Shown one piece after another: positions 61,567-62,694 of a DNA stretch of 64,000 bases (position 1 is its first letter; the number at the start of each line of letters is the position of its first letter). A program made the translations under genes and the position numbers. The stretch comes from Escherichia phage Turkey5: the sequence record PQ471516.1. One strand, given 5' to 3'. Under the pieces are notes generated by a model, which saw only the letters and a list, made by a program, of their open reading frames with translations, did no database searches and was not told where the DNA came from.

Positions 61567-62694
61567 TTAGATGTTATCGCCAATTGGTTGTATTGGTGAT
61601 TGCCATGCCAAAGTACAGATAATTTTAATTTGACCATAAGCACTGTTGTTTACAGAGTCGTTGAAAATACAAGAGATAATTTCATCTTTATCAGAAACAG
61701 TGTGGTTAACTTCGTTAACAATAAAACGCATTTTACGGTTAATGTCAAAATAATCAACTGGAGCAATTACAGTACCACCAATATCTTCTTGTGCTTCACC
61801 ACCGAAACGAACAAACATTTCGTTAACTGGTAAATCATAAGCTTGTTGTACATCAACATCGATATTAGTAACTAGGTATCCAGCAGGACATGTACCAATA
61901 ACTAGAACGGCGTTAGTCCATGAATGATCAATAGTGTTTACAATAACCAAGGAATCTTTACCTGGAGCACCTGTAGCACCTGGCAGACCTTGTTCACCTT
62001 GAATACCCTGTTTACCACGGAATTCAATACCAGTACTCCACTCTTTGGAAGGCGGGGTTGTGGTGTTTACAATATCAACATAGTATAGTTTACCATCTGT
62101 GGTATTATAGAAGCAGTAGTCTTCAGGAAGGTCAGTAATACTAGGGAATACATCACCAGTACTATCAATATGGAATCGTCCACGTAGACCTTGTGGGCCA
62201 CGGAATTGTACACCATCACTCCAAGTTGCAGTTACTGATTGATAGAAATAAACTTTACCATCAGTTGTATTATAGAATGTATAGTTGTTTACGAGGTTAG
62301 TAGTTGGGAATGTATCACCAGAGCTATCAATATGGAATGATTTACCAGCTTCACCAGTATCACCTTTACCAAATTCTACAACGTTCCAAGTACTATTACT
62401 GTCAGTTGCGGCGTTGGTTTTGAAATATAGCTTACTAGTTCCGTTTGCAAGACTAAGATAGCACCAGCCAAGTTCTTCACCTACTCGGAATGATTCATCT
62501 GGGATTTCAAAACCTATCTCGTTTGGATAAAAGTTTTTACCATTTGTACCATCTCTACCAACAACAAGACCTAGATCTTGAATTGTGTTGTCAGCGTAAG
62601 TTACGATCAAATGTCCAGCAGAGTTGATAACTAAACTCTTTATGCCGGAATTATTGCATGAACTACTAGTCCCATTATTAAATGAAATTGTCAT
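61567..62694 (-). CDS. fibre protein with collagen-like Gly-X-Y tracts
   Basis: ATG at 62694 (minus) seven nt after AAGGAA; FRGKQGIQGEQGLPGATGAPGKDS and FRGPQGLRG; duplicated YxFYNTTDGKxY units. Confidence 0.55.
   Translation of the reverse strand: MTISFNNGTSSSCNNSGIKSLVINSAGHLIVTYADNTIQDLGLVVGRDGTNGKNFYPNEIGFEIPDESFRVGEELGWCYLSLANGTSKLYFKTNAATDSNSTWNVVEFGKGDTGEAGKSFHIDSSGDTFPTTNLVNNYTFYNTTDGKVYFYQSVTATWSDGVQFRGPQGLRGRFHIDSTGDVFPSITDLPEDYCFYNTTDGKLYYVDIVNTTTPPSKEWSTGIEFRGKQGIQGEQGLPGATGAPGKDSLVIVNTIDHSWTNAVLVIGTCPAGYLVTNIDVDVQQAYDLPVNEMFVRFGGEAQEDIGGTVIAPVDYFDINRKMRFIVNEVNHTVSDKDEIISCIFNDSVNNSAYGQIKIICTLAWQSPIQPIGDNI

Follow-up and report, generated by a model that had tools for sequence, protein, structure and literature searches.

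Gene and Domain Organization

We analyzed a window of 64,000 nucleotides from Escherichia phage Turkey5 (sequence record PQ471516.1), an Asteriusvirus-type jumbo coliphage sequence that is 99.8% identical to Escherichia phage vB_EcoM_JNE01 and 77-80% identical to the 121Q/PBECO4 group. On the minus strand at 61567-62694 it encodes a protein of 375 amino acids, described in an earlier, sequence-only reading of the window as a fibre with collagen-like Gly-X-Y tracts and a duplicated module. Judging by its orthologues, this is most likely a virion structural protein of the RaK2-like (Asteriusvirus) phage, and it probably forms a short, segmented, collagen-like fibre that would be a parallel homotrimer.

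The protein is 99.7% identical to its vB_EcoM_JNE01 counterpart and matches the “tail protein” family PHROG 13565 from end to end (1-375 of 375 positions, E = 1.1e-209). Full-length orthologues (at least 80% coverage) occur in 71 phage records, from phages of Escherichia, Klebsiella, Salmonella, Erwinia, Yersinia, Serratia, Cronobacter, Pectobacterium, and Xanthomonas; the protein database yielded 59 full-length cluster representatives, which are the relatives used for the tract counts below. RaK2 gp062, 121Q gp574, phAPEC6 gp253, and CBB_228 are orthologues with 58-81% identity. Two of these have been found in virions by mass spectrometry: phAPEC6 gp253 with 14 unique peptides and 65.6% coverage (PMC7247149), and CBB_228 with 13 peptides and 44% coverage (PMC5259590).

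The ATG at 62692-62694 was taken as the start, because AAAAAGGAAATAATA precedes it and because every relative in the alignment begins with MTISFNNG. A longer, TTG-started open reading frame beginning at 62838 would extend into the start of the divergent neighbor and is an artefact of how reading frames are listed.

An AlphaFold2 single-chain model of the protein, built on 25 sequences, consists of a string of confident domains with low-confidence stretches between them. The predicted local distance difference test score (pLDDT) is 74-90 in the modules and 81-95 over most of the C-terminal domain, with lower values at its extreme C-terminus, and falls below 50 at residues 51-54, 108-120, 165-170, and 230-245, which coincide with Gly-X-Y tracts 2-4 and, in part, with tract 1. 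With a predicted template modeling score (pTM) of 0.37, the domains have no fixed mutual arrangement in the model. Mean pairwise identity among relatives is highest in the N-terminal domain (68%), compared with 59% in the C-terminal domain and 43% in tract 4. The features of the gene are as follows.

61567-62694, minus strand: whole gene, ATG-to-stop open reading frame of 375 codons (ATG at 62692-62694, stop at 61567-61569)
62701-62708, minus strand: putative ribosome-binding site read from the sequence, AAAAGGAA, with GGA 8 nucleotides upstream of the ATG
62560-62694, minus strand: N-terminal domain, residues 1-45; beta strands predicted at 18-23, 28-33, and 38-43; poorly modeled, pLDDT 34-73
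62533-62559, minus strand: Gly-X-Y tract 1, residues 46-54, GRDGTNGKN, 3 triplets
62371-62532, minus strand: module 1, residues 55-108, a diverged beta module, F.P...P...GW.YL.L....LYFK....W...F; pLDDT 74-90
62338-62370, minus strand: Gly-X-Y tract 2, residues 109-119, GK-GDTGEAGKS, 3 triplets in register at 111-119
62200-62337, minus strand: module 2, residues 120-165, FHIDSSGDTFP...YTFYNTTDGKVYFYQ...W...QF; pLDDT 81-84; DNA repeats D1, D2, and D4
62173-62199, minus strand: Gly-X-Y tract 3, residues 166-174, GPQGLRGRF, 3 triplets, the exact 9-residue connector between modules 2 and 3
62017-62172, minus strand: module 3, residues 175-226, FHIDSTGDVFP...YCFYNTTDGKLYYVD...W...EFR
61954-62016, minus strand: Gly-X-Y tract 4, residues 227-247, GKQGIQGEQGLPGATGAPGKD, 7 triplets, the main segment of the putative collagen-like stalk
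61570-61953, minus strand: C-terminal domain, residues 248-375, modeled as an eight-stranded jelly-roll beta sandwich, the proposed trimeric head

Gly-X-Y Tracts

The sequence-only reading had quoted two Gly-X-Y strings, and both are present (RGKQGIQGEQGLPGATGAPGKDS at residues 226-248 and RGPQGLRG at 165-172), but its count was too low, as the protein has four tracts, of 3, 3, 3, and 7 triplets. A run of seven in-register glycines was obtained in none of 20,000 shuffles of the protein, and four runs of three or more had a probability of ~1e-4 in shuffles. Across all six frames of the window, tract 4 is the sole run of five or more in-register glycines.

Alignment of the relatives shows that G111, G114, G166, G169, G172, G227, G230, and G242 are invariant and that G46, G52, G109, G233, and G239 are nearly so; within tract 4, G236 and G245 fall in neither class. 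Ten glycines in tracts 2-4 are invariant or nearly invariant in relatives down to 45% identity, from an alignment that spans 30-81% identity, while the X and Y residues vary, which is the pattern of a collagen repeat. In 619 triplets from the 59 relatives, which are phylogenetically related and hence not independent counts, X is Asp in 21%, Glu in 17%, and Pro in 13%, and Y is Gln in 23%, Lys in 18%, Asp in 14%, and Pro in 10%. This is a collagen-type positional preference, with acidic residues or Pro at X and Lys, Arg, Gln, or Pro at Y; asymmetry of that sort is typical for collagens and for charge-stabilized bacterial collagens. In most relatives tract 3 consists of 3 triplets, and P0052, P0054, P0056, and P0057 have a fourth, a difference of exactly one triplet. 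These comparative patterns support the view that the tracts are collagen-like beyond appearance, and the tracts may form a triple helix.

Repeated Beta Modules

The two YxFYNTTDGK(V/L)Y units noted earlier lie at residues 138-149 and 193-204, and both end in FRG rather than in the (F/I)RG given for them. The duplication they were taken to mark is real, but the copy count was low: there are three modules, the first of them diverged. Against shuffled sequences, the alignment of module 2 with module 3 scored z = 25, and 28 of its 48 aligned residues are identical (identical codons at 20 of these 28); at the DNA level the copies appear as direct repeats 162-183 nucleotides apart with 70-83% identity. 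Module 1 is only weakly similar to the other modules (z = 3.1 against module 3).

Orthologous copies of a module are 52% identical and paralogous copies ~40%, so the duplication predates the family. Identity between modules 2 and 3 is 40.6% within a protein versus 37.6% across proteins (permutation p = 2e-4), which hints at some occasional homogenization, or at co-adaptation, between these two modules (62017-62337, minus strand).

Modeled alone, module 3 is a small four-stranded beta domain with a pLDDT of 89.7. A profile of 32 modules searched against the PDB retrieved WW domains of SMURF2, TCERG1, PRP40, and YAP (whole-sequence E of 3.9e-5, best single-domain E of 0.16), and the module core aligns to the WW consensus as LPEGYTFYNTDDGKLYYVDEDT..W. 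The Pfam WW family (PF00397) weakly matches 5 of the 32 modules, with a best E of 0.0065; the first signature Trp is replaced by Tyr, and the terminal Pro is absent. We describe the module as a WW-like three-stranded meander with an extra N-terminal strand, the matches being too weak for membership in the WW family. A comparison of the module with DUF2793 (PF10983), a domain of phage baseplate and fibre proteins, pointed clearly neither to membership nor against it.

PHROG 3904, “tail fiber protein,” matches residues 107-277 (E = 3e-10), and a tblastn search with the module region gave weak, non-orthologous matches in fibre proteins of phage 201phi2-1, a Ruminococcus phage, and Erwinia phage S6 (E of 2e-3 to 7e-3). 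The tblastn matches hint at a wider motif, in that the tract-module-tract arrangement may occur in fibres of unrelated phages as well.

Two further sets of PDB matches were rejected. A full-length profile weakly matched garlic- and snowdrop-type bulb lectins of the beta-prism II fold from module 2 to module 3 (E = 0.08-0.35), a reading in which the three modules would form one pseudo-threefold domain with the Gly-X-Y tracts as loops; this fold was discarded because the matches are non-significant, the modules do not pack against one another in the model, as the low pTM indicates, and module number ranges from 1 to 3 among relatives. The top profile match, “Tribody” 8w4f (E = 0.001), is an engineered nanobody with a Gly-rich linker and was judged spurious.

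Modular Remodeling Among Relatives

The sequence-only reading held collagen-like triplets to be hotspots for length variation, which is overstated for this family. Among the 59 full-length relatives, the number of in-register glycines in tract 4 is 7 for 17 proteins and 6 for 18; a further 15 have an interrupted 3+3 pattern, and 8 have 3-5. Tracts 1-3 vary by no more than one triplet. The large differences lie in the modules, which are lost or swapped for collagen as whole units, giving proteins with one, two, or three modules, or with 62 triplets.

Two syntenic genes from metagenomic RaK2-like phages are drastically remodeled. The first, P0061 (L006 8001-9251), retains the N-terminus and module 1 as well as the C-terminal domain (48% identity), while modules 2 and 3 and their connectors are replaced by 62 uninterrupted triplets that score 116.9 bits with Pfam Collagen, against a cut-off of 27.2. 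P0061 must be a collagen trimer, and the terminal domains that it shares with the 375-residue protein are therefore compatible with a trimer. The second, P0060 (L005 8001-8813), keeps residues 1-110 with 79% identity and carries a C-terminal DUF4376 (27.9 bits). In a more distant member, P0063, module 1 is present in two copies together with an 8-triplet tract.

Modeled C-Terminal Jelly Roll

Residues 248-375 are modeled as a jelly roll that most resembles the trimeric cement proteins of phage capsids. The predicted structure superposes on those of Ralstonia phage GP4 (gp1), Helicobacter pylori phage KHP40 (gp16), and cyanophage Pam1. The likeness is one of fold only: sequence identity is 9-16% with no homology detected, and the PDB profile search returned no such match. 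A phmmer search of these residues against 1.84 billion representatives found only the protein's own family, apart from four repetitive or low-complexity proteins judged spurious. The cement proteins also differ in being single-domain proteins of 124-155 amino acids without a stalk; the one from GP4 is present in 540 copies.

Proposed Fibre and Alternative Explanations

We propose that the N-terminal 45-residue beta domain and module 1 dock on the particle at the tail, baseplate, or neck. The three beta modules, each of 45-55 residues and folding on its own, would be strung on the three 3-triplet connectors, followed by the 7-triplet segment and by the C-terminal jelly roll as a trimeric head, which may bind a conserved ligand or partner protein. 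The Gly-X-Y segments would form short collagen-type triple helices that are too short to be stable alone, and the flanking trimeric modules and the jelly roll would provide them with trimerization and register. The fibre would be ~30 nm long, of which ~14 nm comes from ~50 collagen residues at 0.286 nm each and ~15 nm from the modules, N-terminal domain, and head; the P0061 fibre would be ~35 nm longer. An N-terminal anchor is favored because the N-terminus is the most conserved region and because P0060 keeps residues 1-110 with a different C-terminus. Proteins anchored to the virion by their N-terminus usually show this combination of a conserved N-terminus and an exchangeable distal part.

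Several results weigh against this proposal. The only Pfam match of the 375-residue protein, to Collagen (PF01391), scores 15.1 bits, below the threshold of 27.2, and all of its tracts but tract 4 have only 3 triplets, or ~2.6 nm each; we know of no isolated collagen peptide of 3 triplets that is stable. A one-residue deletion breaks the register of tract 4, into 3+3, in 15 of the 59 relatives. Mean pairwise identity in the C-terminal domain stays at 59% among phages of Escherichia, Klebsiella, Erwinia, and Xanthomonas, which is unusual for a distal receptor-binding head, and the best structural matches of the domain are capsid-bound proteins, which suit C-terminal anchoring no less well than a distal position. 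Finally, RaK2 gp062 was predicted to be structural but went undetected in RaK2 virions, and the authors doubted that it has a structural role (PMC3622015).

The short tracts, the Pfam score below threshold, and the register-breaking deletions would also fit Gly-X-Y segments that are flexible Gly-rich linkers in a monomer or some other oligomer, with a periodicity inherited from a collagen-like ancestor and no present role. The modules of the AlphaFold2 monomer are consistent with this, being confident and self-contained, so that partner chains are unneeded for their folding, and FibU of phage 80-alpha, which is predicted to be collagen-like, has density for just 12 copies versus the expected trimers. 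Simple linkers, however, would not keep Gly at every third residue together with the X/Y bias down to 45% identity, nor would they confine connector indels to whole triplets, and in P0061 the two terminal domains flank a genuine collagen domain of 62 triplets. We consider it very unlikely that the tracts are mere linkers.

Short tracts as trimeric stalks, the arrangement we prefer, are plausible given two precedents. In the PRD1/PR772 spike protein P5, a collagen-like motif at residues 124-140 forms a trimeric stalk below a C-terminal knob, and the side-tail proteins EPclA and EPclB of E. coli O157 prophages are experimentally trimeric with the circular dichroism signature of collagen (Ghosh et al., 2012, PMC3368898). 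The earlier description of the tracts as collagen-like is supported by the invariant glycines, the X/Y bias, the whole-triplet indels, and the 62-triplet orthologue, though not by the Pfam score of the window protein itself. The same reading had named a run too short or not conserved as what would speak against a triple helix; the glycines proved to be conserved among relatives, whereas three of the tracts are indeed just 3 triplets long.

A second alternative is a fibre of opposite polarity. The C-terminal jelly-roll trimer might instead bind the capsid or tail surface in the manner of a cement protein, with the stalk and N-terminus pointing outward, in which case the protein could be one of the “hairy” or elongated decorations of phAPEC6 and CBB that have no gene assignment. 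This would agree with a C-terminal domain that is kept across host genera and has cement proteins as its structural matches, and with the high peptide coverage in virions of phAPEC6 and CBB, both of which are described as hairy. The phAPEC6 capsid bears trimeric-looking appendages, and the 25 Å map of its tail has rings of hairs as well as elongated proteins, 12 of them, without gene assignment at the collar and distal tail; SPP1 gp12 provides an example of a collagen-like trimer that binds the capsid. Against this, the first 110 residues persist at the same genomic position in P0060, which has no such C-terminal domain, and conservation is greatest at the N-terminus. The gene also sits among tail-completion, tailspike, and fibre genes, away from head genes. 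CBB hairs measure ~119 nm (PMC5259590) versus our estimate of ~30 nm, and the gene is also found in relatives without reported hairs; on these two grounds, a reading of the protein as the whisker of CBB and phAPEC6 is unsupported. Overall, we judge the opposite polarity to be unlikely.

A further alternative is a receptor-binding fibre that determines host range, with a C-terminal jelly roll that would recognize a specific E. coli surface receptor. Several records do annotate orthologues as tail fibre or tail protein, the gene lies directly upstream of a colanidase tailspike and a large fibre gene, and jelly-roll heads on trimeric stalks, such as the PRD1 P5 knob, are classic receptor binders. 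Yet the C-terminal domain is among the best conserved parts of the protein (59% pairwise; 48% in P0061) and is common to phages of at least nine host genera, unlike typical specificity domains, and the essential receptor-binding proteins of RaK2 were mapped to gp531 and gp098, not gp062. A role in host range of this kind seems decidedly unlikely.

Extending the proposed trimeric fibre, one can imagine “beads on a collagen string,” in which 3-triplet helices are registered by WW-like modules that act as trimerization knots and are exchanged freely for collagen (1-3 modules; 6-62 triplets), and in which a cement-like head would make the protein a decoration or whisker of hairy RaK2-like phages. 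The modules weakly resemble the trimerization domains of collagens XV and XVIII. We offer this combination as speculation, with a rather low expectation that it will hold.

Genomic Neighborhood

In all relatives examined, the upstream genes encode a ClpA-like ATPase, a 494-amino-acid virion protein, a T4 gp15-like tail sheath stabilizer, and a NUDIX protein, followed by three divergently transcribed virion proteins of 365, 202, and 165 amino acids before the 375-residue protein. RaK2, vB_Ec-M-J, phAPEC6, CBB, and two metagenomic contigs share this set of neighbors, so the position of the gene is conserved. It heads a same-strand run of fibre genes encoding a 715-amino-acid colanidase-type tailspike, a 301-amino-acid protein, and a 1628-amino-acid fibre. 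The name “fibre gene” given in the sequence-only reading is thus indirectly upheld, by the full-length match to PHROG 13565, the place at the head of the tailspike and fibre run, and the presence of orthologues in phAPEC6 and CBB virions. The surrounding features are listed here.

62695-62806: 112-bp AT-rich divergent intergenic region between the gene and the opposite 165-amino-acid virion-protein gene
59411-61558, minus strand: 715-amino-acid colanidase-type tailspike, a single open reading frame
58500-59405, minus strand: 301-amino-acid protein
53501-58387, minus strand: 1628-amino-acid fibre (PHROG 4549) with an internal tandem duplication, residues 166-330 versus 336-499, 63% over 164 residues
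L001 10078-10425, L004 6172-7032, and L006 9263-10108: genes with the putative adaptor domain that is also present in the tailspike and the 301-amino-acid protein

A scan of the intergenic region for sigma-70-like promoters or intrinsic terminators found nothing above chance. An absence of sigma-70 signals is expected for late phage genes, and the region presumably holds phage-specific late promoters.

The tailspike and the 301-amino-acid protein share a conserved N-terminal domain of ~110 residues (M-x-(V/I)-FSNLEGTMKK-F-LGKNGA...), which is also present in RaK2 gp061, CBB_227, and a 281-amino-acid protein beside P0061, and which RaK2 carries alone, as a 115-amino-acid virion protein. The domain looks like a common docking adaptor; its end, GDxY...I(Y/F)IKD-G-W-KP, is reminiscent of the fibre modules. 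Pfam revealed little in the neighboring genes, with weak pectate-lyase and endosialidase N-terminal matches for the tailspike. In vB_Ec-M-J the tailspike is annotated as two adjacent genes (L002 10143-12285; 1083 and 1056 nucleotides), which reflects either a frameshift or split in that genome or a difference in annotation. Several records name one gene (L002 4810-6150, with equivalents in RaK2, CBB, and phAPEC6) “tail sheath” or “proximal tail protein,” but it encodes a T4 gp15-type tail sheath stabilizer or completion protein (PF16724, 78.8 bits); the real sheath protein of phAPEC6 is gp277.

Relation to Known Fibres and Significance

Collagen-like trimeric fibres are well known in phages, and the 375-residue protein resembles several known systems in layout. 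P5 of PRD1 and PR772 has one collagen-like tract and no in-line beta modules, and it stands on the capsid vertex of a tailless phage; no sequence relationship to it was found. The P5 knob is said, in work by Merckel and co-workers from 2005, to be a TNF-like jelly roll. EPclA and EPclB are likewise E. coli phage fibre proteins with Gly-X-Y repeats, in their case flanked by trimerization domains, but their collagen is long and uninterrupted and is accompanied by an alpha-helical coiled coil and phage-fibre repeat domains, in contrast to the short tracts, beta modules, and jelly roll seen here, and the searches made gave no sequence matches between them and our protein. Proteins of the C1q/TNF and BclA types combine a collagen stalk with a C-terminal jelly-roll trimer, a likeness of layout and not of sequence. 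By analogy, the protein may work like PRD1 P5, EPclA/B, or C1q- or BclA-type proteins, with a collagen stalk registered by a trimeric head, and it is a sequence member of none of them.

Within its own family, that of gp062, gp574, gp253, and CBB_228, the protein is a plain member, with the same four Gly-X-Y tracts, three modules, and jelly roll. The searchable literature on RaK2-like phages mentions neither collagen nor the architecture of gp062-type proteins; the segmented layout is previously undescribed, in what is overall an ordinary kind of phage fibre. No concept is changed by these results, and their value is local, the interrupted-collagen layout and the series of exchanges between modules and collagen being a useful description. 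That orthologue series, with three modules, two, one plus 62 triplets, and a swapped C-terminus, offers a comparison for the minimum length of collagen between trimeric domains, and it might guide the engineering of fibre length. For the RaK2/121Q group, whose appendages mostly lack gene assignments, the analysis maps the domains of a conserved, abundant, and so far uncharacterized virion protein and provides a model of it that can be tested.

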